The notes below the pieces were generated by a model, which was not told the DNA's origin, ran no database searches, and worked only from the letters and a program-made list of their open reading frames with translations. The position numbers and the translations under genes are program-made. Below, in pieces: positions 236 through 15,381 of a stretch of 64,000 bases of DNA (within the stretch, counting starts at the first letter, position 1; each line of letters opens with the position of its first letter). The stretch is from an uncultured Candidatus Saccharibacteria bacterium (GTDB lineage: Bacteria > Patescibacteriota > Minisyncoccia > Phycocordibacterales > UBA9973). Where the stretch lies: NCBI GenBank assembly GCA_964474435.1, contig CAYYSI010000001.1:190647-254646 (forward strand). The letters run 5' to 3'.

Positions 236-1552
236 TTATACCTTACACTCCATTTCATAACTTAGATCATAACCAGCTGCCTTTTTATATCTTGCGATGG
301 CACCAGAGTCCCCAGTTGCTTTCAAAACATTATCAGAAAGCTTCACACAGGGAAGATCGTTTACAGTATACGGCTTACATACAATTGAGAGCTGTTTGAG
401 CCCCATATCATTAGTAAGGTTTGTTCCGAGACCATGACTGATAATGCCTTGTCCTAAGAATTTTGAACTTATTTCGATCATTGGGTCAACATCCATCCCG
501 TCGCTTGGAATAAATAACCGATCTCTGAAATCAACATTAGCCTTTACATACCGTTCCTGTTGAAGCAAAATTGCTTTTATAGGATCCATAGAATCAATAC
601 GGAAACCTTTTAGGTCTCGAACTGTTTCATCAGAATATGCTTTTAGACAAAACTCAGTACCAAATGTATCAGGCAATGAGATATTCAATCCATACCCATA
701 TTGAGCAAGCCATTCTTTTTGAATAAATTCCTGGATTGCCGCAAGGTTCATATCGCTGTTTTGCAACAATAGCGCAGATGCAGCCATGCTGATTTCGTGC
801 GCACAGGTGCCGATTGGCATCAGAGCGTATTTCATCGCAAGGCTAGTTGAAGAAGTACCCTTAAATTGATTTGGAAGTTCTTCAGCAACCCTGGCAACTA
901 CATATTCGTGCCATGCCGGACTGAAACTTCTTCTGTTTCCAAAGTCAGAAAACTGAACATAGGGATGCGCTTTGAGTTTAGTAACTCGTGCAAGAAGACG
1001 TTTTATACCTTCAGCATATACTGCTTCGCGTTCCAACCTGCTCATCTTTGATAAGATCGAACGGTAATAAAGCACATTAATAATCTTGAGCATAGAAATT
1101 TCTCCATGAGTTGAATTATTCCAACCTCCTTCTTTACCCCACCTAATGTCCAGTTGATGATCATCGGTTTTAGAGAAATGTACAGCCGGTAATTTAAAAT
1201 TACGAAGATGTTGCAAATAGGGGTCACTAAACATTCGGCGCTCTCCATACTCAAACGTTCCTGCTAAGTAGTGATGTTCACTACCATCAAGTTGTATTTG
1301 CTGCAATAAATCGATTTGGTCACCAAATGCTTTTTCTGTGATATGGTCACCAAGTGGTACGCTGAGCGTACGGTTCTTGAAATGCCATTCTACATTGGCA
1401 GATTTATACAAGTTATGGTCAAAAATAAATTGTCCCATTGAAAACTTATAAAAATCATCATCTAGTAAAGAAGAAACAATTGGTCCCTCCATAGTTTCTT
1501 CATCGATGCGACGAAGATCCATATTACTACCATTTCTTTTATTGTTTTTCAT
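236..1552 (-). CDS. pncB: Nicotinate phosphoribosyltransferase (NAPRTase family)
   Basis: N-terminal LLDDDFYKFSMGQ signature and overall NAPRTase-like sequence. AGGAGG Shine-Dalgarno 8 nt upstream of the ATG at 1552. Overlaps and is co-oriented with the upstream nicotinamidase gene. The full ORF extends to 1585. Confidence 0.8.
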   Translation of the reverse strand: MKNNKRNGSNMDLRRIDEETMEGPIVSSLLDDDFYKFSMGQFIFDHNLYKSANVEWHFKNRTLSVPLGDHITEKAFGDQIDLLQQIQLDGSEHHYLAGTFEYGERRMFSDPYLQHLRNFKLPAVHFSKTDDHQLDIRWGKEGGWNNSTHGEISMLKIINVLYYRSILSKMSRLEREAVYAEGIKRLLARVTKLKAHPYVQFSDFGNRRSFSPAWHEYVVARVAEELPNQFKGTSSTSLAMKYALMPIGTCAHEISMAASALLLQNSDMNLAAIQEFIQKEWLAQYGYGLNISLPDTFGTEFCLKAYSDETVRDLKGFRIDSMDPIKAILLQQERYVKANVDFRDRLFIPSDGMDVDPMIEISSKFLGQGIISHGLGTNLTNDMGLKQLSIVCKPYTVNDLPCVKLSDNVLKATGDSGAIARYKKAAGYDLSYEMECKV

Positions 1553-2129
1553 TGCATACCTCCTGTGTTTTTGTGACATGGGCATGGGCAGCTCTCATCA
1601 AGAGCTCTGCTTCAAAGCCATCTGTCGGGTGAATGTTTACAGCTCGCACAGCATCATTCAAAAGAACGGTGTCGTAGCCAAATTTCTGTGAATCAAGGAC
1701 ACACGCCTTTACGCAGTAGTCTTTTGCAAGACCAGCTACATAGAGGGTGGTGATACCATGTTCTTTGAGAACAGCATCGAGCGGTCTTCCTTTAATATCA
1801 ACCCCTTCGAAAGGGGAGTAACCGTCGTCTACAGTACTCATACCTTTCGATATGAGTACATAGTGCTCCGGCATCTTGATATCAGGATGGAACTTAGCTC
1901 CATTAGTATTTTTAACACAATGTGTTTCCCATGTACCACCATCCTTTTTAAAGTGTTTGGTTTTCCTAGGATGCCAATCACGAGTGAAAATGATCAGCCA
2001 GTCTAGCTTGACCGCATGTGCGATCAGCAGGTTAATGTAGGGAATGATCTCATCTCCAAATGGAACACCAAGTGCTCCGCCAGGAAAGAAATCGTTCTGT
2101 CCATCGACGATTATCAAAGCTTTTTTCAT
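1539..2129 (-). CDS. pncA: Nicotinamidase/pyrazinamidase (isochorismatase family)
   Basis: IVDGQNDF motif at the N-terminus and a conserved Cys in the YVAGLAKDYCV segment. 196 aa. NrtR-like operator in its promoter. Confidence 0.8.
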   Translation of the reverse strand: MKKALIIVDGQNDFFPGGALGVPFGDEIIPYINLLIAHAVKLDWLIIFTRDWHPRKTKHFKKDGGTWETHCVKNTNGAKFHPDIKMPEHYVLISKGMSTVDDGYSPFEGVDIKGRPLDAVLKEHGITTLYVAGLAKDYCVKACVLDSQKFGYDTVLLNDAVRAVNIHPTDGFEAELLMRAAHAHVTKTQEVCNEKQ

Positions 2130-2162
2130 GCGTTATGATTTTATGTAAGTTGTGAATGTAAA

Positions 2163-2183
2163 TTAGTGTATTTATTACACTAT
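2163..2183. promoter_or_regulatory. Putative NrtR operator (TTAGTGT-N7-ACACTAT palindrome) upstream of pncA-pncB
   Basis: Palindrome with a GT-N7-AC core, 34-54 nt upstream of the pncA start. Near-identical copies occur at 6600-6620 and 9364-9384. Confidence 0.6.
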
Positions 2184-2288
2184 ATACCTATTTTTACTAT
2201 ATAGGTACTTTGTCTTCACTATAACATATTATTTAGTATAAGTCAATAAATAAAAGGAGTACTTGTGTACTCCTTTTCATAAGAATAA

Positions 2289-4037
2289 TTATGGCTTCAT
2301 GGTCATAGACCATACCTTGTTTTGATAGGTCACTATGACTTTATTTTGCCAATTTGAAAGAACAAAAGCGCTTTTTACTTGAGGATCAAGAACCTCGCGA
2401 ACTTGGCCATTCGTTGGTACAGCAATCATTAGTTTGCCATCATCTATAATGCTTGCACGGACACCTTTCGGTAGAAGTGCGACATTTAATTCAGGTGTAT
2501 CAACTTCTCTTATATCTACTTGATAATCAGTATAGGAACTATTGAAAGTGTATTGATATGCACTATACCTTCCTGACTTTGGATCAAGTGCGGTAACAAT
2601 GATATGTCTGAAACCGGCTACTGCATCAACTACTTTTTGGTCCTTTAGTGAAGGAGCGCTGATATAGGTACATGCATTTGTACCAAATGGTACTACCAGA
2701 TGAACGGCACCGAGCGACTGCTGGATACCAAGTCCTCGATACCACGTCGTTGCATTTCCGAGTACTTGCCAGGTATTCACCGTAACGAGTATTGGTTTCC
2801 CAAAATCTTTTACTGTTATTTCCGTTAATCCTGCATCAGTAACTACAAAGAGTCTGTCCTGAAATCTGAGCAATGATTTTCCTTTAAGATGCGACTGCAG
2901 CTCTGTGATTCCTCCATGCCCCACAAGAAGTGTGAATCGAATATTTTCTCCAGGCACTAATTCAGCAAGTAGATACCCCGATTCAACAGGAATTACTTCA
3001 GCTGTATACTCAATGCATGTTTTCCATATCATCCCAGTTGCGACATGTCGAAGTGTTCCTGATGCAAGCCTCATGACACCGCTCGGGTATATAGTAATGG
3101 CTTCATCAGTGATTCCGTCATAGAGTAGTGAGAACACAATACTACCAGCACCAGAGGTAAATAGTACAGGTGCGTGCTTAATAGCCTGCATTTTCTTTTG
3201 CTGAAGCGGAGATGGCGGCATAGAGCGTTCTCCGTTCTGAAACACCGCCTCATACCATTCCAAAAGATTTGGAGGAATGCATGAGAAATCTCTCACCGCA
3301 CTGTTGAGACGTACACCTGTGGTAAAAACAGATTTATTGTCCTTCATTCGTTTTTCCATATCATTCCCGGTATATCCGCTAAGCATACCTTTATATGGAT
3401 GAATGCCGGTAAATACTTGAAATGAGACGATACCGAATGAAAACCAATCCGTCTCTCGGGTAAACCCATGTGTGTGCCAATCCCGAATGGAAGGCATAAT
3501 AACTGACGCCTTCCATTTCCCGATAGCCCATGAGTCAACATCAATGATACGAGGCTCAGGAATCTTGTTTGATCGATTGACGAGCCAGTTGAATTCATTT
3601 GCATCAACAACAATCGCGTTATGCTGATGGGCTGCCTCAATTGTAGTTCGCATACCATCGACAAGTGCAATTGCGTCTTTGTCTTTAAAGTTCTCTCTCT
3701 GACGATACGTACTCGTAAATACTCTTGCCAACGGTTCTGCGTCAACAAAATCCATATAATACCCAATAGGTTTTTTCCCTTGAAGTACTACTCCTTTAGG
3801 CGAAACAATAAACGGATGCTTGATACGAGAGAGGAGTTGTATCTTATCTTGCATATCGAGCGTACTCATTTTATAAGGATCGCTATAGAGTTTCACAATG
3901 GTCTTGCTTGAAGGTTTATAGATAGAGCCTTCACCACCAGTTGCGATATGATGCGATGGGTGAAGTGCGATATCTCCTCGACCAACAAGTGTAACGATTG
4001 TTTCTTTTTTGAGTATTCCTTGTTGTGTTGTTATCAT
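2289..4037 (-). CDS. Ser/Thr protein kinase with a ~300-aa C-terminal extension (kinase component of a TerY-P-like triad)
   Basis: Gly-rich loop GGEGSIY, catalytic loop HNAIVVDANEFNWLV, a DVDSW (DFG-like) segment, and an activation segment ending FSFGIVSFQVFTGIHPY. The start overlaps the PP2C stop (ATGA). Confidence 0.75.
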   Translation of the reverse strand: MITTQQGILKKETIVTLVGRGDIALHPSHHIATGGEGSIYKPSSKTIVKLYSDPYKMSTLDMQDKIQLLSRIKHPFIVSPKGVVLQGKKPIGYYMDFVDAEPLARVFTSTYRQRENFKDKDAIALVDGMRTTIEAAHQHNAIVVDANEFNWLVNRSNKIPEPRIIDVDSWAIGKWKASVIMPSIRDWHTHGFTRETDWFSFGIVSFQVFTGIHPYKGMLSGYTGNDMEKRMKDNKSVFTTGVRLNSAVRDFSCIPPNLLEWYEAVFQNGERSMPPSPLQQKKMQAIKHAPVLFTSGAGSIVFSLLYDGITDEAITIYPSGVMRLASGTLRHVATGMIWKTCIEYTAEVIPVESGYLLAELVPGENIRFTLLVGHGGITELQSHLKGKSLLRFQDRLFVVTDAGLTEITVKDFGKPILVTVNTWQVLGNATTWYRGLGIQQSLGAVHLVVPFGTNACTYISAPSLKDQKVVDAVAGFRHIIVTALDPKSGRYSAYQYTFNSSYTDYQVDIREVDTPELNVALLPKGVRASIIDDGKLMIAVPTNGQVREVLDPQVKSAFVLSNWQNKVIVTYQNKVWSMTMKP

Positions 4038-4903
4038 GATACTTCATGTTGTGCATCTATATGTATTGCTGCTACAGAAAAATCATCAGAAGGAAATATT
4101 TCTTCCTTTGAAAATACGTGTAGCATTCTACTGAGACGCCTTTTTACAAATTCTCCCTGCCACTGTTTGATCGAGGTAAGTTCTTGTATGATCGTACCTG
4201 GTTCAATAAGTGCAGCGTGAGCTTTAAAATTTTCAACCCCATCAGAGCAAAGAATAATACTTTTCAATCCCAGTAATTCTTCTTGAGAGAATGTAATACT
4301 GTATCCCTGTACCATTTCTTTGGCTGGATATGTAGATTCTTCAATCTGTAGATCTTGTCCAGCATGAGTCGTGGTTTTGATGACCACAAAGCTTTCAGGA
4401 TCATCACTTGCGTGTCGAGATAGGAATCCATCCAATACCTTTCCGCTATAGGAAATATACAAGGGCATATTTTGCTTCCATATGAAGCGATACGTTACTA
4501 TCTTTCCATCTGTATAGATCAATGTGACGCACCCATCTCCAAATACATGAACGAAACCACGATCTGGTGTCGTAACTGCATACAGCAGTGTTGCTTGTAA
4601 ATCATGAAGCATGAGTCCCATACTGCTCATAATGGCAGTACTGGTAGATCTAATTTTTTTCGATATGATCTCTGGTGAATTATCACTCTCTGGGTTTGAT
4701 AAACACTCCTTAAGCACCATAATTGCTGCATAATTGAGTATTCTCGCACCAGTATCTGTTTCTCCTCCAGTAGAGCATCCATCTGAAAGTGATATGTATG
4801 CAGATGTCCCAGACATGCCCGATAAGGCATGATCCTGACATGGCATATTTTGACGAATGTGCAGTCCGCCAATGACGAAATGCGAATCTCCATTGAATTT
4901 CAT
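4034..4903 (-). CDS. PP2C-family protein Ser/Thr phosphatase (TerY-P triad phosphatase)
   Basis: PP2C motifs (MPCQDHA, FGDGCVTL, LCSDGV). The start is trimmed to the ATG at 4903 because the full ORF (to 5104) would run through the hairpin and the upstream vWA gene. Confidence 0.7.
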   Translation of the reverse strand: MKFNGDSHFVIGGLHIRQNMPCQDHALSGMSGTSAYISLSDGCSTGGETDTGARILNYAAIMVLKECLSNPESDNSPEIISKKIRSTSTAIMSSMGLMLHDLQATLLYAVTTPDRGFVHVFGDGCVTLIYTDGKIVTYRFIWKQNMPLYISYSGKVLDGFLSRHASDDPESFVVIKTTTHAGQDLQIEESTYPAKEMVQGYSITFSQEELLGLKSIILCSDGVENFKAHAALIEPGTIIQELTSIKQWQGEFVKRRLSRMLHVFSKEEIFPSDDFSVAAIHIDAQHEVS

Positions 4904-4930
4904 TGTAATGAATTTAGTGGTGAAATAATA

Positions 4931-4956
4931 AAAGGTGGAGTAATTGCTCCACCTTT
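4931..4956 (-). terminator. Hairpin (10-bp stem AAAGGTGGAG/CTCCACCTTT) between the vWA and PP2C genes; possible terminator or attenuator
   Basis: Perfect inverted repeat followed on the minus strand by a U-rich stretch, immediately after the vWA stop. Confidence 0.5.
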
Positions 4957-4964
4957 GATACTGA

Positions 4965-5711
4965 TCAGATTGTTGTGCTGATGTTTTGTGACGCACCGCC
5001 AGTACCAACCGCTTGCGATTGGGAACTAACTGATTGACTGACGAAATCTGCAAGCTTTGCAAGTTTTCGTTCAGATACATCTCCTGCATCAATAAATTGA
5101 TCAAGGCCCGCCTCTATTTGAAAGCTTTGTAATTCAGTAAGGTACTGAGCGGCATTAATACCGATTAGTATACTTACCATAGATTCAAGGAATTCTCCCT
5201 TGATACCTTTTTCAATCTCTTTCTTGATGGCTGATGATTTCATTACTGAAGCATTATCATCTCCATCGGTAATGATAAAGACGATAGCGTTGTTACGAAA
5301 ATCATCATCATAAAGCGTCTTTGAATAGGCATTTGTTGCTCCTATCGCAGAATATGTTGCGTCTACCAGAGGTGTACCTCCACCAGGATTGAAGTTCTCG
5401 TAATCATCAGGATTGATTTCAGCTAATGGCTTGAAGCCATGCAATTCTTTAATACCTCCTTGTAGGGAGCTAGAAAAGAGAATGACGCGGATCAGAAGAT
5501 TGTCTGAGCGAGGTGATTTTTTGCAAGAATTTACTGCAGTAATCAGACACTGGCGCAGTTGATCTTCGAATCCATCAACAGATCCAGTGATATCAACGGC
5601 AATTGTAACGAGTGTATACTCTGAAGCACCAAGATGCTCAGTGCGTATAGCGGAGAAGGTGAAGTTTCCACCAGGAATCTTACCATCTTCCATTTGATCT
5701 AAACGTGGCAT
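4965..5711 (-). CDS. von Willebrand factor A domain protein, TerY-like
   Basis: MIDAS motif DITGS, plus GGGTP and ITDGDDN segments. ~248 aa. First gene of the vWA-PP2C-kinase order typical of TerY-P triads. Confidence 0.75.
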   Translation of the reverse strand: MPRLDQMEDGKIPGGNFTFSAIRTEHLGASEYTLVTIAVDITGSVDGFEDQLRQCLITAVNSCKKSPRSDNLLIRVILFSSSLQGGIKELHGFKPLAEINPDDYENFNPGGGTPLVDATYSAIGATNAYSKTLYDDDFRNNAIVFIITDGDDNASVMKSSAIKKEIEKGIKGEFLESMVSILIGINAAQYLTELQSFQIEAGLDQFIDAGDVSERKLAKLADFVSQSVSSQSQAVGTGGASQNISTTI

Positions 5712-5724
5712 AAGTGTAAGTTTT

Positions 5725-6570
5725 TTAGTTGAAGAATGTTGTTGATGTTGTTAGCTGAACTCCTTTTTTCTGGATATCTTTTATCCAGGCTGCAGTAAGA
5801 GCAGGGAAGTCAATGACATTTGGAATAGCAGCGATAGAGCTTGAGCAATCAGTCATGATGTGAATCTTGCTCAAATGTTGTGTGCCGATGTTATCAATAA
5901 TTTGATTTACTGTTTCCATCACGCAGTGGCTCAATGCCTCTCCAGCAACCAATACCACATCGGCTTTTTCCAATGTTTCAAGGAGCTTAGTATTTAGTAG
6001 AGTGGTTGGATCAGTTGGATCTTCTACTTCTGCCATAAGGCCACCATAGTGCTCTGTGTAAGGATTAGTACCCTTGGTCACAACATCGAGCATTGCATAT
6101 TCGTTCCGCTGCCAATCAAGAAGGGCCTTCATAAGGTCTGCCTGTATTGCATGTCCAGGTGTTCCAATAATACAATGTTCAGTCCAAACTGTGTGACGTT
6201 TCTTTTTATTCTGTTCCAACGTGCGCAAGTACTGAAGAGAACGTGTACGAACCCCTGGGTCTCTCGTAGTCCAGATACCCGCTTCAACATCGTCAGCAAT
6301 GATTTGTGTGAAGGGTGGGGGAGGATTACCTTTTGCATCCTTCCACCACATCGGGTGCGAAATATCGATGACCTGATGTGAGTCCATGGTCACATGGATG
6401 TCTTCCAATTTTTCACCATTACCGGCAATAAATGCTGCGAGTCGCTGCATATCGGCCGTGGCGCCAGGGACGGGAAGTGCCGGAATAAACCCTACAATAC
6501 CGTCTACGCGATCCATGAAATCATTCTGAGGATCGATGATAACTAAGTGGATTTTTTGTGTTGTTTTCAT
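5725..6570 (-). CDS. Isochorismatase-family cysteine hydrolase (second nicotinamidase-like enzyme, 281 aa)
   Basis: IIDPQNDF motif and a conserved Cys in VLVAGEALSHCV. Directly downstream of an NrtR-like operator, with only a 13-nt gap before the vWA gene. Confidence 0.7.
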   Translation of the reverse strand: MKTTQKIHLVIIDPQNDFMDRVDGIVGFIPALPVPGATADMQRLAAFIAGNGEKLEDIHVTMDSHQVIDISHPMWWKDAKGNPPPPFTQIIADDVEAGIWTTRDPGVRTRSLQYLRTLEQNKKKRHTVWTEHCIIGTPGHAIQADLMKALLDWQRNEYAMLDVVTKGTNPYTEHYGGLMAEVEDPTDPTTLLNTKLLETLEKADVVLVAGEALSHCVMETVNQIIDNIGTQHLSKIHIMTDCSSSIAAIPNVIDFPALTAAWIKDIQKKGVQLTTSTTFFN

Positions 6571-6599
6571 CTTTTTGTTTTTTATTGTTAAGGAATTAA

Positions 6600-6620
6600 T
6601 TAGTGTTCTTTTTACACTAT
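6600..6620. promoter_or_regulatory. Putative NrtR operator (TTAGTGT-N7-ACACTAT) upstream of the isochorismatase-vWA operon
   Basis: Same palindrome as at 2163 and 9364. A second half-site-like TTAGTGT follows at 6625-6631. Confidence 0.6.
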
Positions 6621-6697
6621 ATACTTAGTGTAAAAAATACGCAAAGTAGTTATGCGTTAGAATACACAATTAGTATGTTGTCAAATAATCCTTATTT

Positions 6698-7411
6698 TTA
6701 GAGAAACTGCCTTGTATCAACAAGAGCTGTTTTCTTGAACTCGTAGAGAATAGCGGGACGCTGCTTTTTGCCTGTAAGTTTTTTCTTGGTTGCCTTTATG
6801 ATATCGAGCTGATCAATCAATTTTCGAAAGTTCCGTTTATCCATAGATTGCTGGAGAATAATCTCATAGGTTTGTTGAAGCATACTAAAGGTAAAATATT
6901 TCGGCATTGCCGCAAATGCAACATTGGTATATTTTAATTTTGACTGCACACGCTTGTACGCATACTTGATAATATCCTTGTGATCAAATGCAACCTTTGC
7001 AGGTAATTCATGTACATCAAAGAGTGTTGGCTGTTGTCCGTGAATAAGGTCAATATGCTTGTACACCTCTTCAGAGATAAGTGCAAAATAGGTAACAGAG
7101 AACACAACATCACGTGGATCTCGGCCTGGTGTATCAAATGTATACAATTGCTCAATATACAGCGGATCACTTAATCCGACTTTTTCTTTGAGTACTCGAA
7201 CAGCGGTGTCTTTAGTTGATTCTTCCTTTCGAGGAAATGCTCCCGGAAGCGCCCATAGACCCCTAAACGGTTCTCCATCACGGTTAATGAGAAGTACCTT
7301 AAGCTTGTCCTCATGAACCATAAAAAGGACTACGTCTACTGAAACGTATGGGTTGAGGAAGTTTGTATTTGAACGGTCGATATTATTTGTTTTCATAGGT
7401 ATCAAGAGCAT
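6698..7411 (-). CDS. nrtR: NrtR, Nudix-related transcriptional regulator of NAD metabolism
   Basis: N-terminal Nudix-like fold and a C-terminal winged-helix signature FTFSMLQQTYEIIL...DKRNFRK. Overlaps the end of nadE, so both are likely in one operon. Confidence 0.75.
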   Translation of the reverse strand: MLLIPMKTNNIDRSNTNFLNPYVSVDVVLFMVHEDKLKVLLINRDGEPFRGLWALPGAFPRKEESTKDTAVRVLKEKVGLSDPLYIEQLYTFDTPGRDPRDVVFSVTYFALISEEVYKHIDLIHGQQPTLFDVHELPAKVAFDHKDIIKYAYKRVQSKLKYTNVAFAAMPKYFTFSMLQQTYEIILQQSMDKRNFRKLIDQLDIIKATKKKLTGKKQRPAILYEFKKTALVDTRQFL

Positions 7412-9353
7412 TCATCCATAATGTCATTTCTGCGTCTGATGGCATTCTCCAGTCTGCACGAGGGGAGAGCGATACAGATCCAACCTTTGGCCCATCCGGC
7501 ATAATAGAACGCTTCCATTGCATCATAAAGAATCGCTTCATGAATACCTTGAGCCATTTCATTATCTCAGAGCCATCGTATTTACCTTCAAAGGCAAGTA
7601 CTGCTAGTTCATAGATTTTGACCGGATGACTTGCCCAGCGAATAAAATGATAGAGAAAGAAATCATGCAGTTCATATGGTCCTACCAATTCTTCTGTTTT
7701 TTGAGCAATCTGCCCGTCTTTTGTTGCAGTGAGCTCAGGTGAGATTGGTGTATCTAAAATAGACTGAATAACATCTTGAACAGTGGTGTCATAGTGTTTC
7801 TTTGCCATCCACGCAACAACATGCTGCACAAGCGTTTTTGGAACACCTGCATTTACATTATAGGGAGCAGTATGATCTCCGGTAAACGTATTCCATCCAA
7901 GCGCAATCTCAGAGAGATCTCCGGTACCCATAACAAATCCTTTTAATTCATTTGCCTTATCCATAAGAATCATCGTTCGGTAGCGCGCTTGTGCATTCTC
8001 ATACGTGTTATTTTCTGTAACACCATCATGCCCAATATCAGCAAGGTGCTGCGTCACTGCGGGCACAATACTGATCTCCTCAACTGGTAATTTGAATGCC
8101 CCAGCAAGTGTATATGTATTTGATTTTGTGTGATCTGTTGTACCAAACCCAGGCATCGTAATGATATGCATATTGGTAGCAGGAAGAGAAAGCTTTTCCA
8201 ATGCTTTGATACCGACCAATAGCGCAAGTGTTGAATCAAGTCCTCCCGACAGACCAAGTACGAGATGCTGAATTCCTGACTGCTTCATTCGTTTTGTCAG
8301 TCCTGCAACTTGAATATTAAATACCTCCTCAGCAACTTCCTGCTTTAGTGCATCACTTTCTGGAATAAAATTACTCTGTGGAACCTTTCGTTCAAGACCA
8401 GAAACACTCGTAGCTGAAGACCCTGGTAGAGAAATGGTGCGCCATGACTGAGTATTGATTTCTCGAGTTGCATCTCCAAAACTCGTTGTTCGGATACGAT
8501 CAATCATACAGTGGGCAATATCAATATCTGCATACATGATGTATGGATCTTGCTGATATCGTACTGATTCAGCAATCATGCTTCCATTTTCTGCGACTAT
8601 GCAATGCCCTGAAAAAACAGTGTCAGTCGTTGATTCACCTATACCAGAAGAAACGTATACATACGCACTGATAGTTCGAGCACTTTGCTGAAGTACAAGA
8701 TTGCGACGGTAGTGTGCTTTTCCAACAAGTTCGTTTGAGGCAGACAGGTTTACAAGTACAGTCGCACCAGCAACAGCGAGCTTTGAGCTTGGCGGAAGCG
8801 GTGTCCACACGTCTTCACAAATTTCTACACCAAGTACTACTTGTGTATTATCAGAGGATGCAAAAAGGAGGTCAGTTCCAACAGGAATATCATACCCGAA
8901 AAACTTAATTGAGTTGCTGATTAAATCTCGTCCTGACGCAAACCAGCGCTTCTCATAAAATTCTTTGTATTCAGGAAGATTTGTTTTTGGAATAATCCCA
9001 ACAACTTTTCCTTCGGCACATACTGCCGCAACATTAAAAAGCTTTGATTCAATCCGAAGGGGAAGTCCCACAATGCATACACCACCATCGATAGTCGCCT
9101 TAGCAATCAGAGAAAGACCCTTGGAAGCAGCTTCTAATAAAATATCCTGCTGCAATAGATCTCCAAGGGTATACCCGGTAATGCAAAGCTCTGGGAAAGC
9201 AACAATAGACGCACCGTTTTTTCGAGCGTCCCTAAAAAGTGTAATAATCGCATCAGTATTAGCGACACAGTCACCGAGGAGTACTGATGGCACCGCTGTT
9301 GCAATACGAATCATTCCTAGAGAACCGAGATCAATGGTCTTGTGTTTTGTCAT
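7383..9353 (-). CDS. nadE: Glutamine-dependent NAD+ synthetase (CN-hydrolase + NAD synthetase domains)
   Basis: N-terminal nitrilase-like domain, and the PP-loop GLSGGLDS in the synthetase domain. 656 aa. Confidence 0.9.
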   Translation of the reverse strand: MTKHKTIDLGSLGMIRIATAVPSVLLGDCVANTDAIITLFRDARKNGASIVAFPELCITGYTLGDLLQQDILLEAASKGLSLIAKATIDGGVCIVGLPLRIESKLFNVAAVCAEGKVVGIIPKTNLPEYKEFYEKRWFASGRDLISNSIKFFGYDIPVGTDLLFASSDNTQVVLGVEICEDVWTPLPPSSKLAVAGATVLVNLSASNELVGKAHYRRNLVLQQSARTISAYVYVSSGIGESTTDTVFSGHCIVAENGSMIAESVRYQQDPYIMYADIDIAHCMIDRIRTTSFGDATREINTQSWRTISLPGSSATSVSGLERKVPQSNFIPESDALKQEVAEEVFNIQVAGLTKRMKQSGIQHLVLGLSGGLDSTLALLVGIKALEKLSLPATNMHIITMPGFGTTDHTKSNTYTLAGAFKLPVEEISIVPAVTQHLADIGHDGVTENNTYENAQARYRTMILMDKANELKGFVMGTGDLSEIALGWNTFTGDHTAPYNVNAGVPKTLVQHVVAWMAKKHYDTTVQDVIQSILDTPISPELTATKDGQIAQKTEELVGPYELHDFFLYHFIRWASHPVKIYELAVLAFEGKYDGSEIMKWLKVFMKRFFMMQWKRSIMPDGPKVGSVSLSPRADWRMPSDAEMTLWMNALDTYENK

Positions 9354-9363
9354 AGTATTGTTT

Positions 9364-9384
9364 ATAGTGTTAGTCGTACACTAT
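9364..9384. promoter_or_regulatory. Putative NrtR operator (ATAGTGT-N7-ACACTAT) in the divergent nadE / Nudix intergenic region
   Basis: Third copy of the palindrome, 11-31 nt upstream of the nadE start. Implies autoregulation of the nadE-nrtR operon and control of the divergent Nudix gene. Confidence 0.6.
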
Positions 9385-9419
9385 GTAAATTACTACAATC
9401 CCAATTTATTGTCAATACC

Positions 9420-10157
9420 ATGTTTAAATCTCACACTCCAAATCTCCATATTAATCTTGAAAAGCCGGCCGGTTATCCGGATCGATTCGTCACTCCCGAA
9501 CCCAACCGCTCATGGGAAGTACGCTATCCAGAATATATTCCACCATACTATATTGACCCAAAAGTCCTTATACAAGGCATAGAGAAAGGATGGGCTGATC
9601 CAGAAGATATCTCAGCAATTGAAAAAAGGGGCTGGAGCAGAAATTATGAAGTAAACATAGATGAAGAAGGGTTTCCGCTTAACCCAAAAGGAAGAACAGG
9701 TATTAAGGGTCGAGGCCTTTTGGGAAAATGGGGAGCAAATTATGCAGTAGATATTCTTGTCTCAAGAACTACAGATAAGGGGAGGGAATACCTACTTATT
9801 AAGCGAACAGACAATCATCAATATGCATTTGTTGGAGGAATGGTTGATGGTGATGAATCAGATATCAGAGCAGCAGAGCGAGAGCTCGGAGAAGAAGTAC
9901 ATTTAGATATTCCACTTGAAAAAGCTGAGGTTATTGAGAAGGGATATGCAAATGATTTTAGGAATACTGACAATGCATGGATAGAAACAACAGTCTTTCA
10001 TATGGACGTAACTAATACTAACTATGTAACCCCTCGAGCAGATGATGATGCAGAATCTCTCGAATGGGTACCCGAAGAAAGCATACCTACCCTCAAAATG
10101 CATAGTAATCATCATCAAGTACTTGAGTCATTTATAAAAAATCATGCAAGAAATTAA
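9420..10157 (+). CDS. Nudix hydrolase, NUDT9-like ADP-ribose pyrophosphatase
   Basis: Nudix box ...GGMVDGDESDIRAAERELGEEV, and a NUDT9-type N-terminal segment GRTGIKGRGLLGKWGAN. The start is trimmed to the ATG at 9420 to avoid overlapping the nadE start. Confidence 0.75.
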   Translation: MFKSHTPNLHINLEKPAGYPDRFVTPEPNRSWEVRYPEYIPPYYIDPKVLIQGIEKGWADPEDISAIEKRGWSRNYEVNIDEEGFPLNPKGRTGIKGRGLLGKWGANYAVDILVSRTTDKGREYLLIKRTDNHQYAFVGGMVDGDESDIRAAERELGEEVHLDIPLEKAEVIEKGYANDFRNTDNAWIETTVFHMDVTNTNYVTPRADDDAESLEWVPEESIPTLKMHSNHHQVLESFIKNHARN

Positions 10158-10614
10158 AGCCCCAAACAACATTCCAGAGTCACCTAATATGAAAATATTT
10201 CTCGCAGGAAGTATTGAGATGGGTACAGCAGATAATTGGCAAAACATTGTAAGTGAAAAACTTAAAGATGAGGCAGTACTACTTCTAAATCCTCGAAGAG
10301 ATATATGGGATACCACATGGGAACAATCGAAACAGAATCCTGCATTCCGTGAACAAGTTGAGTGGGAACTTGATGCGCTGACAAGAAGTGATTACATCAT
10401 TTTATACTTCGATAAAAATACAAAGTCCCCGATCTCGCTCCTTGAGATGGGACTATTCGCACAAAGCGGAAAACTGCTCATTATCTGTCCAGAGGGGTTT
10501 TGGCGGAAAGGGAATGTTGATATTGTCTCTGAAAAATACGGGGCTCTGCAGTTTCGGACACTTGATGATGCACTCGAATATCTTACTCCTTTCATTCGGA
10601 CCTTCCAGATATAG
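10144..10614 (+). CDS. Nucleoside 2-deoxyribosyltransferase-like (NDT/Rcl fold) protein
   Basis: KIFLAGSI...NPRRD...DALTRSDYII...E.G.A..GK pattern typical of the NDT/Rcl family. The true start may instead be the ATG at 10189 (MKIFLAG). Overlaps the Nudix stop. Confidence 0.55.
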   Translation: MQEIKAPNNIPESPNMKIFLAGSIEMGTADNWQNIVSEKLKDEAVLLLNPRRDIWDTTWEQSKQNPAFREQVEWELDALTRSDYIILYFDKNTKSPISLLEMGLFAQSGKLLIICPEGFWRKGNVDIVSEKYGALQFRTLDDALEYLTPFIRTFQI

Positions 10615-10680
10615 AGATATATTTGACTTTTAGATAAAATTATGGTACTATTACCATAATGCCTTTGCTCTTTTACAGAG

Positions 10681-10731
10681 TATAGATTGGTTTCCACAGC
10701 ATCTTTACGGGATTGTGGTAACCAATCTATA
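10681..10731. repeat. 18-bp inverted repeat (TATAGATTGGTTTCCACA / TGTGGTAACCAATCTATA, 1 mismatch) with a 15-nt loop, ending 7 nt before the mqo start
   Basis: Seen directly in the sequence. Not followed by a T-run, so it is more likely an operator or RNA structure than a terminator. Confidence 0.6.
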
Positions 10732-10737
10732 CACACA

Positions 10738-12129
10738 ATGCAAAACAACACATATGACGTACTCATTATCGGAGTCGGCGCCAGTGGAAGCGCACTTGCT
10801 TATACACTATGCCGATATACCAATATCAAGCGCATAGTTGTTGTAGAAAAATACGATAAACCAGGACAGGTTAATACCAAAGCATCAAATAATAGTCAAA
10901 CACTGCACGTTGGAGATATCGAAACAAACTACACTATCGACAAGGTACGCACGGTCAAACCGGCGTCCATGATGACAGTAGCGTATGCAAACATGCTTCC
11001 ATCTGCAGAACGAAACAAGATTCTTAAGGTATTACCTAAGATGGTTCTTGGGATCGGCACTGAAGTACCCTTACTCGAACAACGCTTTAATGAATTGCGA
11101 CCACTGTTTCCTGAATTACAAAAATTGTATGGGCCTGATATTGCCAAGATTGAACCAAACATAATGAATGGTCGCAATCCTGATGAAAAAATCATCGCGC
11201 TCTACAATCCAATTGGGTACGCAGTTGATTTTGAGTACCTATCTCAATCATTTATAACTGAAGCACAAAAGTGCAATTCGGAGATTGATATACGGTACCA
11301 AAGCGAAGTACAGCAAATTGAGAAATGTGATGATGGTCTCTATATGGTGCATATTAAAGGAGATATATCTCTTCGTGCAAAAGTTGTAATAGTTGATGCA
11401 GATTCATATAGCCTCCTTTTTGCAAAACAATTAGGATACGGCATGGAGTATTCACTCATTCCTATTGGAGGAACATTCTATTTCACAGAGCAGTTACTTC
11501 AAAGCAAAGTCTATACAGTGCAAAAACCAGGATTACCTTTTGCAGCAGCACACGGCGATCCTGATTTACATCATCCAAATCTGACACGATGGGGACCAAC
11601 TGCACGGTTTTATCCTGCGCTTGAGAGTCACAAGTTCGGCACGAGCGGAGATTATTTCCGTTCTTCTGGACTAAATCGAATGCGTACCTGGAAAAGTTTT
11701 TTCTCTATCTTACTTAAAAAGGTTATGCGAAAGTATCTCTTTGCAAATATGCTCTACGAATTGCCTGTATTGGGGAAGTGGATGTTTGTTTCAAAAAACA
11801 TTCGTAAGATTATTCCTACCATACGCAACAAAGACGTACGCATTGCAAAAGGATACGGTGGCATGCGATTGCAACGAGTAGATACTCGAACCCATGAATT
11901 ACAGCTTGGGGAAGGGAAGATTGTTGGAAATAATATTATCTTCAACATGACTCCGTCACCTGGTGCAAGTGTCGCACTCTACAATGCGTATCGTGATGCT
12001 GAACAAATTACCACTTTCCTCGGAGAACAGTTTCTGTTTTCTAAAGAGGATATGGAGCATGACCTGATTACAAGCCAGACTATCGATCATTCAATCTCAG
12101 TTTCGCTTCCTGTAGGGTATGCGTCATAA
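10738..12129 (+). CDS. mqo: FAD-dependent malate:quinone oxidoreductase-like protein
   Basis: Dinucleotide-binding YDVLIIGVGASGSALAY motif near the N-terminus. ~464 aa, resembling the Mqo family. Start trimmed to M18 (ATG at 10738). Confidence 0.65.
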   Translation: MQNNTYDVLIIGVGASGSALAYTLCRYTNIKRIVVVEKYDKPGQVNTKASNNSQTLHVGDIETNYTIDKVRTVKPASMMTVAYANMLPSAERNKILKVLPKMVLGIGTEVPLLEQRFNELRPLFPELQKLYGPDIAKIEPNIMNGRNPDEKIIALYNPIGYAVDFEYLSQSFITEAQKCNSEIDIRYQSEVQQIEKCDDGLYMVHIKGDISLRAKVVIVDADSYSLLFAKQLGYGMEYSLIPIGGTFYFTEQLLQSKVYTVQKPGLPFAAAHGDPDLHHPNLTRWGPTARFYPALESHKFGTSGDYFRSSGLNRMRTWKSFFSILLKKVMRKYLFANMLYELPVLGKWMFVSKNIRKIIPTIRNKDVRIAKGYGGMRLQRVDTRTHELQLGEGKIVGNNIIFNMTPSPGASVALYNAYRDAEQITTFLGEQFLFSKEDMEHDLITSQTIDHSISVSLPVGYAS

Positions 12130-13300: not shown

Positions 13301-13759
13301 ATGGAAGCAAAACTTACGGTACATTCAAGAAAATCAGAAAAAAGGTATGACTTTTCATTCAGAATTTATAAATCTGAAAAGGTAGACGATTTACAAATTG
13401 AACCAGGGTTTTATGAGCAACATTCTTCACTTCCTGAGGGTATACACTACGAAATAGAGATTATTTCTCCTGACATTAAAAGTTTTCCGTATGCTAAAAA
13501 GATTCATTATCACACTTCAGCAAAGAGTTCAAAAGACTTTATTTGCTGGACTGGGAGTATATCTTCGACACAACAAGTGGTAGGACTAGTTAGCATGTGG
13601 GCCGCAGGTTCTGTACATACCATAGAAACAGGGGAGGATTTTGCGAAGCTTTATAAAAGGCATAATATAAACCTCACAGACCATAGAACTCTTGTGTATT
13701 TACTGAAGAGTGAGCAGTATGGGATCGACATCCCAAAGAGCTCATATAGATTTTTATAA
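13301..13759 (+). CDS. Hypothetical protein (152 aa)
   Basis: ORF followed by a strong terminator. No family recognised. AT-rich. Confidence 0.45.
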   Translation: MEAKLTVHSRKSEKRYDFSFRIYKSEKVDDLQIEPGFYEQHSSLPEGIHYEIEIISPDIKSFPYAKKIHYHTSAKSSKDFICWTGSISSTQQVVGLVSMWAAGSVHTIETGEDFAKLYKRHNINLTDHRTLVYLLKSEQYGIDIPKSSYRFL

Positions 13760-13770
13760 GTAAATATAAA

Positions 13771-13806
13771 AAAGGCTATCGATATTACGATAGCCTTTGT
13801 TTTTTA
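13771..13806 (+). terminator. Rho-independent terminator
   Basis: AAGGCTATCG / CGATAGCCTT stem followed by TGTTTTTTATT. Confidence 0.7.
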
Positions 13807-13855
13807 TTCAACTTCTTTTTCAATAGCTTCAGAAAACTTTTGGGGTGCGTATTTT

Positions 13856-14302
13856 GTGAGTATACCTACTAGTGCTGACTTCACAAATCATTATCGTGAA
13901 CTAGATACGATGAATCGTTTTAGCGCATTTCATGGGTATTTTTCAATTTATGAATCAACAATAAGAGTGTTGGTAAATATTATAGATCCACTAGCTTGTA
14001 ATAACGGTAAGGCAAATTTTAATAGTGTTCTAAACTGGCTTGTTGCCAGAACCAGATTTAATCAAAGATATAATGACTTTCTTGAGTTATTACGTTTAAC
14101 GAGAAACACTGTTCATCATAATGGAGTTTATAGGCCAGAAAGGGGAGGTGACAAAGTCATTCCTTATAAAGGAGGAGTATATGAATTCAATATAGGACAA
14201 CCTATCATTTTTGCTGGCTGGGAATTTATGATAATGCTACAAAATGATCTCATTGAATTCTTTTTAGAACTAGTGGAAGAACCTGTAATCACTAATATTT
14301 AG
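13856..14302 (+). CDS. Hypothetical small protein with a possible HEPN-like Rx4H motif (RNTVHH)
   Basis: ORF only. The motif LRLTRNTVHHNG resembles a HEPN Rx4-6H signature. The start may be the ATG at 13910 (MNRFSAF). Confidence 0.4.
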   Translation: MSIPTSADFTNHYRELDTMNRFSAFHGYFSIYESTIRVLVNIIDPLACNNGKANFNSVLNWLVARTRFNQRYNDFLELLRLTRNTVHHNGVYRPERGGDKVIPYKGGVYEFNIGQPIIFAGWEFMIMLQNDLIEFFLELVEEPVITNI

Positions 14303-14448: not shown

Positions 14449-15381
14449 CTACTTGGCTTGATACCACACCAAACATGCATTGAACGCTGCAACTTGTGCG
14501 TTATACTGTTTAATTTTTTCTTGAGAAATAACGAGTGCCGTGTTGTACTCGGCAACCATGGCATTGAACGCTGTGACACGAGCCTTGTACTCGTTCCCTC
14601 GTGGTCGATCAGGACCTTCGAGAATAGCCTTTTCGGTAGCGATAGTTGCTTGGCGTTGTTTGAGGTCTTTGTTGATACTATCAATCGATACCTTGAGTGA
14701 TGTACTGATCACAGGGCATGCGCTGCGCGTCGTGCCGAAATGCTGTACCGCAAACCACACGTCGCGACCTTGGTATGTACCTTTGGCAGCGTAGACACCG
14801 ATCTCTTGGTAGTTAGGGTTCAAAATATTTGCACGATGGCCGGCACTGTTCATCCATGCTTCAACAACATCATCGCCGTCCACGAAGTTGCCCAGCGCAA
14901 GATTCTCACCCATGACGACATAACTGTATCCAACCTTTGCCCCAAGATCTGACACCCCTTCACCGGTTGGTGAAATGTGTTCAAAGTATTGGCGCGTGAT
15001 CATGTCATTGGTTTTGATTGTCGCAGAGCTTACGAGTTTGGGATTGAGTGTCAGTGGTGGTAGGCCTGCCGCGATACGTTCGCGATTTGTTGCATCCACG
15101 ATGTTGTTGGTCGAGAGTGCAGTACTCATTTCTGTGGACTGACTTCCCTTGTCTGCTGGCGGTTTGACCCCGCTGAAATACTCTATGATGCTCGATGGTG
15201 TCAGTGGATCTGCTTTGTTGGTGTCTTGTACCAACGCAGGGGTTGGTGCTGTTTCTATGAACATGCCGAGCACGCGATCAGTAACCCTATTTGCAAGGTC
15301 GGGTTTTGCAATCGTGATGACCAAGAGGCCGATGGCGACGCTAATGAAAATGTTACTGAAAAATGATCGCATAGTTAGCAC
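14449..15381 (-). CDS. Membrane-anchored CAP/SCP/PR-1 domain protein with a C-terminal coiled coil
   Basis: N-terminal TM helix. CAP-domain segment NRERIAAGLPPLTLN...HFGTTRSAC...AWMNSAGHRANILNPNYQEIG. Confidence 0.65.
   Translation of the reverse strand: MLTMRSFFSNIFISVAIGLLVITIAKPDLANRVTDRVLGMFIETAPTPALVQDTNKADPLTPSSIIEYFSGVKPPADKGSQSTEMSTALSTNNIVDATNRERIAAGLPPLTLNPKLVSSATIKTNDMITRQYFEHISPTGEGVSDLGAKVGYSYVVMGENLALGNFVDGDDVVEAWMNSAGHRANILNPNYQEIGVYAAKGTYQGRDVWFAVQHFGTTRSACPVISTSLKVSIDSINKDLKQRQATIATEKAILEGPDRPRGNEYKARVTAFNAMVAEYNTALVISQEKIKQYNAQVAAFNACLVWYQAK

Follow-up and report, generated by a model that had tools for sequence, protein, structure and literature searches.

We analysed a four-gene cassette in a 64-kb stretch of DNA from an uncultured Candidatus Saccharibacteria bacterium, hereafter the window. 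The cassette encodes an isochorismatase-family protein (isoL), a von Willebrand factor A (vWA) protein, a PP2C phosphatase and a Ser/Thr kinase. A sequence-only reading of this DNA had described the last three genes as a TerY-P-type triad inside an NrtR-controlled locus for nicotinamide adenine dinucleotide (NAD) salvage and ADP-ribose metabolism. Our data indicate that the four genes very probably constitute a conserved, NrtR-linked module associated with NAD salvage. The order of the genes is fixed among related loci, NAD genes recur around them, and an NrtR-type operator precedes isoL in many of these loci.

The cassette and its neighbourhood in related loci

The proteins of the window were annotated from a map of open reading frames (ORFs) and from Pfam, NCBIfam and PADLOC profile scans. 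All four genes of the cassette lie on the minus strand. The isoL gene (5725–6570, 281 aa; profile scans and alignments) is followed by the vWA gene (4965–5711, 248 aa; alignments, structure prediction and Foldseek), the PP2C gene (4034–4903, 289 aa; PF13672) and the kinase gene (2289–4037, 582 aa; ORF map and profile scans). According to a terminator scan and the sequence, a strong intrinsic terminator (2252–2277, minus strand) stands 3′ of the kinase gene. The gene list and coordinates of the sequence-only reading were correct, and all of the features are there, on the minus strand within 2289–6632. Its PP2C gene also stood, with a corrected start: the real start is at 4903 rather than that of the 356-aa ORF, and the resulting 289 aa were also called independently.

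Among one genome per species (185,579 species), we found 186 relatives of the kinase, and analysed the loci of the best 80 of these 186 with flanks of 10 kb each. According to tblastn and ORF-level BLAST, the order isoL-vWA-PP2C-kinase, in the same orientation, was kept throughout the 71 loci that have sufficient sequence upstream. Sequence identity was 42–67% for isoL and vWA (31–34% in one outlier, L078), as against 26–42% for PP2C. The nearest species-level relative, with identities of 54–67%, was a metagenome-assembled genome (MAG) labelled uncultured Gammaproteobacteria (L002). Homologues came mostly from MAGs of Patescibacteria. Beyond this group their occurrence was patchy and included Bradyrhizobium, Micavibrio, Bdellovibrionales, Thermosynechococcus and Desulfosudis; the labels of non-Patescibacteria MAGs may include binning errors, with the exception of three Bradyrhizobium isolates. 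Several of the non-Patescibacteria carriers (Micavibrio, Bdellovibrionales, Pseudobdellovibrionaceae and Rickettsiales MAGs) are predatory or host-dependent. If the bins are clean, these lineages hint at a link to a scavenging lifestyle.

To describe the neighbourhood, all ORFs in the flanks were clustered and the recurrent clusters annotated. Among the 43 loci whose flanks reach 4 kb or more in both directions, 36 carried pncB, nrtR, nadE, a nadD-like gene, pnuC or nadR. Across all 80 loci, the genes near the cassette were pncB (40 loci), nrtR (37), nadE (25, plus 6 with a short form), a cytidylyltransferase resembling NadD/nicotinamide mononucleotide adenylyltransferase (NMNAT; 21), a TrmB-type regulator (10), a methyltransferase (8), pncA (7), an ADP-ribosylglycohydrolase within 10 kb (7), pnuC (5), a nadR-like gene (5) and a Nudix gene (5). 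These counts include the nrtR, pncA and Nudix genes for which the sequence-only reading had proposed such a survey. A frequent arrangement on one strand was nrtR>isoL>vWA>PP2C>kinase>(NMNAT)>pncB>nadE. The string covers the whole Preiss-Handler route, with isoL at the place of the nicotinamidase.

Two further neighbours had characteristic positions. The ADP-ribosylglycohydrolase gene was directly 3′ of the kinase gene in L015, L022, L045, L051, L053, L054 and L055, which are MAGs labelled Saccharibacteria, Kaiserbacteria, Nomurabacteria or Paceibacteria. A TrmB/IclR-type helix-turn-helix regulator of ~257 aa was encoded directly 5′ of isoL or nrtR in L012, L029, L032, L035, L072 and others, and may be a second or alternative regulator.

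The four encoded proteins

A profile built from 30 isoL sequences was searched against the PDB. The top six matches were all nicotinamidases, with no other match under an E-value of 0.04: 29iv (a new entry) and yeast Pnc1 (2h0r) at ~1e-8, PncA of Mycobacterium tuberculosis (3pl1) at 4.5e-6, and the P. horikoshii enzyme (1ilw), 9u8m and PncA of A. baumannii (2wt9) at 1e-3 to 0.04. In alignments, the predicted catalytic triad of isoL (D13, K166, C216) was invariant. The same was true of D63, H65 and H132 of the predicted metal site (D63-x-H65, H72, H132) and of W129 and C133 of the WPxHC motif, while H72 was present in at least 90% of sequences. The metal-site and WPxHC residues align with equivalents in 29iv and yeast Pnc1, and the alignments of the profile with PDB entries also span the triad motifs. 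With the nicotinamidases of yeast, M. tuberculosis and A. baumannii, isoL has in common the Asp-Lys-Cys triad, the Asp/His metal site and the WPxHC, KG and xHCV motifs. It differs from PncA in being ~80 aa longer, in an insertion of ~55 aa and in having a vWA gene always directly 3′ of its own. The alignment of isoL with the window's own PncA contained 28% identical residues. The isoL family comprised 2465 homologues, a size similar to that of the vWA family (2373); some members are named nicotinamidase/pyrazinamidase by JGI, and PF00857 is recorded for several.

The fixed gene order, the profile matches and the invariant residues therefore indicate that isoL is an integral component of the cassette and, by sequence, a member of the nicotinamidase (PncA) branch among isochorismatase-like cysteine hydrolases. 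The sequence-only reading had recognized an isochorismatase-family gene here and considered it extra to the triad. The gene is present, but it is the fourth component in all 71 loci. In L006, L011, L014, L049, L059 and L072, the isoL ORF measured 511–535 aa because the open frame is ~240–265 codons longer upstream; this may represent an N-terminal fusion or merely a long upstream frame. A Pfam scan of the extension in L006 returned no match.

The vWA protein had no relevant match in Pfam, NCBIfam, PADLOC or a PDB profile search. The PDB profile search yielded just two matches, to a thioredoxin and to a designed repeat protein, with E-values of 0.6–0.8, and these were discarded as irrelevant. 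The fold of the protein emerged from structure prediction only. An AlphaFold2 (AF2) model based on an alignment of 37 homologues had a pLDDT score (predicted local distance difference test) of 87.6, and its Foldseek matches were almost all vWA or integrin I domains (E 1e-9 to 1e-6). The metal ion-dependent adhesion site (MIDAS) was complete, with D40-x-T-x-S44, T113 and D149 invariant in two independent alignments. The invariant residues and the vWA/integrin I fold of the model agree with the MIDAS (DITGS) that the sequence-only reading had assigned. The best-conserved stretch of the protein was its Ser-rich C-terminal helix and tail, FVSQSVSSQSQAxGTGGxSQ (residues 223–242), which was invariant and includes the serines S225, S227, S230, S232 and S241.

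The PP2C protein matched PF13672 at 1.1e-14, and its metal-binding Asp residues were invariant (D24, D41-G42, D123-G124, D221-G222 and D273-D274). The kinase domain, a YegI-like Hanks-type Ser/Thr kinase, spans residues 1–280 (3198–4037, minus strand) and contains the motifs GGEGS, K49, VDANExNW (D145, N150) and IDVDSW (D168, S169). Both proteins keep all of their catalytic residues and, as judged from these, look active. The possibility that the kinase acts on a small molecule was rejected: its best structural matches were all protein kinases, and its nearest homologue, YegI, is a proven protein kinase.

The sequence-only reading had noted a C-terminal extension of the kinase of ~300 aa. The extension is present and, in the predicted structure, forms an all-beta domain (residues 298–582, ~285 aa; 2292–3146, minus strand) preceded by a linker predicted to be disordered (residues 281–297). 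The 28 predicted strands fall into seven groups of four, with pLDDT mostly 85–95, a model compatible with a beta-propeller. No internal sequence repeat was detected in the domain, and Pfam and PDB sequence searches with it returned no match. The domain was found in 389 clusters among 1.84 billion representative proteins, where it stands at the C-terminus of full-length kinase proteins (~530–700 aa); shorter matches look like fragments. On this sequence evidence, the domain is restricted to this kinase family. According to the model, which has an all-beta C-terminal domain and no predicted long helix, the kinase appears to be soluble.

We used hhalign profile alignments to compare the cassette with the yegL-pphC-yegJ-yegI locus of E. 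coli K-12, which encodes the same three protein types, YegL-PphC(YegK)-YegI, in the same order. The kinase aligned with YegI (96.5%, E 7e-10) and the PP2C protein with PphC (88.6%, E 2.7e-6). YegI and the window kinase share the unusual motifs GGEGxxY, D-(A/V)-N-x-x-N and ID-x-DS-(W/F), and the two phosphatases share an N-terminal IG..H...PCQD motif. YegL, like the window vWA protein, ends in a Ser-rich helix; the alignment of the two covers the TDG motif and this helix (FVSQSVSSQSQ vs SWLSSSLRSVSRS), and JGI names some of the vWA homologues YegL. A vWA-PP2C-kinase triad in TerY-P order is thus present, with a kinase and a phosphatase homologous to YegI and PphC. Profile searches placed these two proteins in the families that the sequence-only reading had named, while the vWA assignment failed by sequence and held by predicted structure. 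The two loci also differ. YegI is an active Ser kinase that autophosphorylates its activation loop, and is a two-pass membrane protein of 648 aa (bioRxiv 10.1101/819920), whereas the window kinase appears soluble and has the all-beta domain. Further, yegL and pphC overlap, whereas the window vWA and PP2C genes are separated by a terminator-like hairpin, and the E. coli locus has no nicotinamidase-like gene, NrtR operator or NAD genes.

The cassette resembles TerY-P in combining a MIDAS-containing vWA protein, a PP2C phosphatase and a Ser/Thr kinase in a compact mobile unit. According to the summary in PMC11090510, TerY-P (Anantharaman et al. 2012) has been put forward as a phospho-switch that depends on metal, and PMC11090510 and PMC7699616 cite Gao 2020 for TerY-P-like triads reported to act against phages on their own. 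The kinases of TerY-P are described as carrying a C-terminal zinc ribbon and those of the anti-phage type an OB fold (PMC11090510). The all-beta domain of the window kinase is neither of these, and the triad is therefore a distinct architectural variant of the TerY-P/YegLKI class. The partners differ as well: those described are Ter genes, CoCoNuT/McrBC and restriction systems, whereas the triad here is joined by a nicotinamidase-like enzyme, in an NrtR regulon. In the searchable literature, we found no description of a unit linking NrtR, a nicotinamidase or an isochorismatase with a vWA protein, a PP2C phosphatase or a kinase. The statement of the sequence-only reading that an NAD link is new for TerY-P holds within that scope, outside which lie subscription papers that possibly contain an earlier mention.

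Operator, internal hairpin and locus context

The palindrome TAGTGT-N7-ACACTA occurs three times in the 64 kb, as against 0.02 expected, and all three copies are intergenic and beside NAD genes. In a motif scan, one 19-bp copy was located 5′ of isoL (6601–6619), in the 127-nt region between nrtR and isoL (6571–6697). The others were located 5′ of pncA-pncB (2164–2182) and in the divergent nadE/Nudix intergenic region (9365–9383). In the operator region of isoL (6601–6632), an additional overlapping half-site creates a second inverted repeat at 6613–6632. The GT-N7-AC core of the palindrome fits the published NrtR consensus, this core being reported for most NrtR groups (Rodionov et al. 2008, PMC2330246). 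Among the related loci, the motif was found within 300 bp 5′ of isoL in 38 of 69, with at most two mismatches allowed; the background rate was 0.054 per 310 bp. The sequence-only reading had postulated an NrtR operator ahead of the cassette, and its presence, its conservation and its fit to the consensus support an operator of the NrtR type.

Known NrtR regulons resemble this locus in having a regulator with Nudix and winged-helix domains, a GT-N7-AC palindrome and pncA-pncB/nadE as targets, with ADP-ribose as the effector that frees NrtR from DNA in vitro (PMC2330246). By contrast, the regulon tables of that paper list no kinase, phosphatase or vWA gene and no second nicotinamidase-like gene. 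The predicted four-gene operon would extend the NrtR regulon in Patescibacteria. The nrtX-nrtY genes of the same paper, a two-gene unknown, are unrelated to the cassette.

A possible sigma-70-type promoter could be read directly from the sequence at isoL (6616–6644, minus strand). It consists of a −35 element TTGCGT (6644–6639), a 17-nt spacer and a −10 element TATAGT (6621–6616), and the candidate −10 element shares 4 nt with the operator. A consensus promoter scan did not list this promoter because its −35 element matches at only 3 of 6 positions.

A terminator-like hairpin (4923–4956, minus strand) occupies the 61-nt spacer between the vWA and PP2C genes (4904–4964). It has a GC-containing stem of 10 bp (AAAGGUGGAG/CUCCACCUUU), a 6-nt loop and a U-rich tail, and a folding energy of −15.7 kcal/mol (z = −3.4). 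Of 73 related loci, 54 have a GC-rich hairpin followed by a T-run in this spacer. Between loci, these hairpins have unrelated sequences, so what is conserved is the structure and not the sequence. In contrast to this spacer, the gap between isoL and vWA is 13 nt, and the PP2C gene, with its stop codon, runs 4 nt into the start of the kinase gene (ATGA). The vWA/PP2C joint is also where two cassettes are split, in L083 by a LAGLIDADG endonuclease gene and a 302-aa ORF and in L088 by ~5.5 kb of unknown ORFs. The hairpin, the spacing and the break points therefore define two pairs, isoL with vWA and PP2C with the kinase. Overall, the hairpin looks like a conserved internal attenuator that would give the two pairs different levels. 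As it divides the cassette, the simple co-transcription of all four genes that the sequence-only reading had assumed is not assured.

The cassette also occurs in Bradyrhizobium and in phage-like sequences. In the three Bradyrhizobium isolates (L057, L062 and L063), the cassette has no internal hairpin and has an additional ORF between the PP2C and kinase genes (~128 aa in L063, no Pfam match). Its neighbours there are radical SAM, RNase T-like exonuclease and HerA-like ATPase genes. L084–L087 are IMG/VR provirus calls from Bradyrhizobium-like isolate genomes that carry the cassette, and one of them, L086, matches L062 almost to the coordinate. L088 (IMG/VR, 262 kb, 34% GC, many unknown small ORFs) has all four genes at 2013–11599. 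In the phage-like contig L083, all four are at 5818–11707, with two phage-type Dam methylase genes downstream. No PADLOC model matched the window's vWA, PP2C or isoL proteins; E. coli YegL, PphC and YegI were likewise missed, and this negative is therefore uninformative.

The genes that the sequence-only reading had named around the cassette were recovered by profile scans and PDB searches. On one side are pncA (nicotinamidase; 1539–2129, minus strand), which has its own upstream region, and pncB (nicotinate phosphoribosyltransferase; 236–1585, minus strand). On the other side, nrtR (6698–7411, minus strand) encodes a Nudix domain and an NrtR winged helix, with PF21906 at 1.8e-19, PF00293, and NCBIfam NF050029 at 3e-44, below the cutoff of that model. 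It is followed by nadE (glutamine-dependent NAD synthetase; 7383–9353, minus strand) and, in divergent orientation, by a gene for a NUDT9-like ADP-ribose pyrophosphatase (9420–10157, plus strand), whose best PDB matches were human NUDT9 (1q33, E 5e-23) and the NUDT9-H domains of TRPM2. Next is a gene for an NDT-like PF15891 protein (10144–10614, plus strand; Pfam). The NUDT9-like and NDT-like genes overlap by 14 nt and have the operator at 9365–9383 in common. The sole solved relative of the NDT-like protein, 4mcj, is itself uncharacterised, and the pair may jointly process ADP-ribose or a nucleoside product. The ADP-ribosylglycohydrolase gene (PF03747; 12227–13216, minus strand) is ~5.7 kb from the cassette.

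Farther along the window, 13301–14302 is a low-GC patch (34–37%) with ORFs of 152 and 148 aa on the plus strand, neither of which had a match in Pfam or PADLOC scans. A perfect bidirectional terminator hairpin (13771–13798) divides the two ORFs, and a secreted-type CAP-domain protein is encoded 3′ of the pair (14449–15381). An Rfam scan of the window returned two tRNAs and nothing else.

Proposed mechanism and alternatives

We propose that the cassette is an NrtR-repressed accessory module of NAD salvage, with a phospho-switch in the vWA protein and isoL as an amidase; we give this explanation, taken as a whole, an even chance of being right. NAD breakdown would cause ADP-ribose to accumulate and NrtR to leave its operators. 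The cassette would then be transcribed along with pncA-pncB, nadE-nrtR and the ADP-ribose-processing genes. Induction by ADP-ribose is proposed because of the operator and the published biochemistry of NrtR. In the induced cell, isoL would function as a metal-dependent nicotinamidase-type amidase that deamidates nicotinamide, or a closely related derivative, to the nicotinate form, which would proceed to NAD via PncB, NadD and NadE. We assign isoL this role because of its residues, its relatives and a gap in the pathway: where pncB-containing loci have no pncA in their flanks, isoL would provide the nicotinamidase.

A specific phospho-switch that acts on vWA and isoL is the more tentative part of the proposal, and we consider it somewhat less than an even prospect. 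The kinase would phosphorylate the vWA protein at serines of its Ser-rich C-terminal helix and tail, and the PP2C phosphatase would take the phosphates off again. In integrin I domains, the C-terminal alpha7 helix is allosterically coupled to the MIDAS. The proposed phospho-sites follow from the conserved Ser-rich helix and this analogy, under which the phosphorylation state of the vWA protein would set partner binding at its MIDAS. That partner would most plausibly be isoL, whose gene always directly precedes that of vWA. The all-beta domain of the kinase might supply the input signal or a docking site, and the conserved hairpin would hold the kinase and the phosphatase at low levels while isoL and vWA remain plentiful. 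This arrangement points to an undescribed control of NAD salvage by phosphorylation.

Several observations weigh against this proposal. With respect to isoL, the Pfam score was below threshold (PF00857, 21.1 bits vs a 27-bit cutoff), and the ~55-aa insertion relative to PncA falls between D-x-H and WPxHC. The window also has a canonical pncA, so that isoL is not needed there for plain nicotinamide deamidation and may have a substrate other than nicotinamide. The pathway gap itself refers to the flanks, where canonical pncA was not found in 34 of 40 pncB-containing loci. With respect to the switch, the vWA protein resembles YegL weakly by sequence (hhalign E 1e-3, probability 19.8%), and the substrates of YegI-type kinases are unknown even in E. 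coli (bioRxiv 10.1101/819920). Finally, neither NAD genes nor NrtR were found near the cassettes of the Bradyrhizobium isolates or the phage-like copies. The module can therefore work outside an NAD operon.

The last of these points bears on an alternative that we consider unlikely, yet the most serious of those weighed: that the cassette is a conflict system, for anti-phage defence or phage counter-defence, in which a TerY-P-like sensor triad controls a nicotinamidase-type effector that alters the nicotinamide/NAD pool. In defence, removal of nicotinamide would starve the NAD-reconstitution enzymes of a phage; in a phage, the effector would push nicotinamide back into NAD via host PncB. The NAD operon context would then serve recovery. 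The sequence-only reading had suggested NAD+ depletion or restoration during infection as an example of what the module senses or actuates; the loci speak neither clearly for nor clearly against a role in infection. The patchy spread across phyla is consistent with such a role, as are the provirus and phage-like copies near Dam methylases, a LAGLIDADG endonuclease, a HerA-like ATPase and an exonuclease, and the anti-phage activity that the papers citing Gao 2020 attribute to TerY-P-like triads (PMC11090510, PMC7699616). NrtR-type regulators, moreover, also control predicted ADP-ribose-centred conflict systems with vWA chaperones (PMC9503650). However, most of the loci are single co-directional strings of housekeeping NAD biosynthesis genes and not defence islands. 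The proteins are well conserved, at 40–67% identity across classes, with no sign of fast evolution, and the conserved core has no nuclease or other toxic effector. The lack of a PADLOC match for vWA, PP2C or isoL points the same way, as a weak test in view of the E. coli control.

The ADP-ribose-centred systems merit closer comparison. Iyer et al. 2022 (PMC9503650) predicted that systems centred on an ADP-ribosylglycohydrolase and regulated by Nudix or WYL proteins undo viral ADP-ribosylation. They resemble the cassette in their NrtR-like ADP-ribose sensor, in a vWA protein proposed to be a Mg-dependent peptide-binding chaperone and in a coupled phosphatase, and seven of the loci related to the cassette have an ADP-ribosylglycohydrolase gene 3′ of the kinase gene. 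Their core, by contrast, is a glycohydrolase with a rhodanese-type phosphatase, whereas the cassette combines a nicotinamidase-like enzyme, a PP2C phosphatase and a kinase. A glycohydrolase was within 10 kb in only 7 of the 80 loci.

It is improbable, in our view, that the triad is a general signalling unit with an outside target, such as NrtR, PncB, NadE or a transporter, and that isoL is merely a salvage enzyme sharing its promoter. Hanks-type kinases usually have several substrates, which would suit an outside target, and the hairpin parts isoL-vWA from PP2C-kinase. There is also a precedent for post-translational modulation of NrtR, by acetylation (eLife 2019, as listed in PMC9503650). But the adjacency of isoL and vWA was kept in 71 of 71 loci, even where no NAD genes or NrtR are nearby (Bradyrhizobium, L083, L088), which speaks for isoL being a functional partner rather than a passenger. 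Moreover, the conserved Ser-rich segment is in the vWA protein and not in isoL.

We likewise regard as quite improbable that isoL is not a nicotinamidase and instead acts on another amide or ester, such as nicotinamide mononucleotide, nicotinamide riboside, NAD or a protein-linked group, so that the module would serve a branch of pyridine-nucleotide or ADP-ribose metabolism not yet recognised. In favour of this, the window and 6–7 other loci have both isoL and a canonical pncA, and ADP-ribosylglycohydrolase and Nudix genes are sometimes directly 3′ of the kinase gene. The insertion, which is beside the active site, and the sub-threshold Pfam score would also fit another substrate. By contrast, the residues that define nicotinamidases (the triad, the D-x-H...H metal site and WPxHC) are all invariant, the nearest solved relatives are all nicotinamidases, and a nicotinamidase is the simplest enzyme to close the gap seen in 34 of 40 pncB loci. 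Finally, the concern that the triad lies beside NAD genes by chance in this genome, which the sequence-only reading had raised against itself and which has in its favour only the prior that neighbouring genes need not be related, has virtually no probability left and is already refuted by a neighbourhood that recurs across ~80 species-level genomes (36 of 43 loci, with the operator in 38 of 69).

Control of bacterial NAD salvage is known at the level of transcription, through NrtR, NiaR and NadR; a dedicated Ser/Thr kinase/phosphatase switch on a salvage enzyme would add a new layer of control. The cassette would also supply the first concrete candidate partners for a TerY-P/YegI-type triad, namely a nicotinamidase-like enzyme and the Ser-rich helix of the triad's own vWA protein. 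TerY-P triads are widespread and have reported anti-phage activity, and their function has been open since 2012. In a bolder version, to which we attach a low probability, a triad of the YegL-PphC-YegI/TerY-P class post-translationally gates a nicotinamidase, pyridine salvage becomes a phospho-regulated checkpoint, and the four genes are a portable unit used by host-dependent bacteria, phages and proviruses in a contest over NAD and nicotinamide in the course of infection or parasitism. The copies in proviruses and phage-like contigs would tie the unit to NAD depletion and reconstitution in phage-host conflicts. Patescibacteria live on hosts and are without many biosynthetic routes. As the module is often in the only visible NAD pathway of these bacteria, it therefore bears on how they manage a scavenged cofactor.

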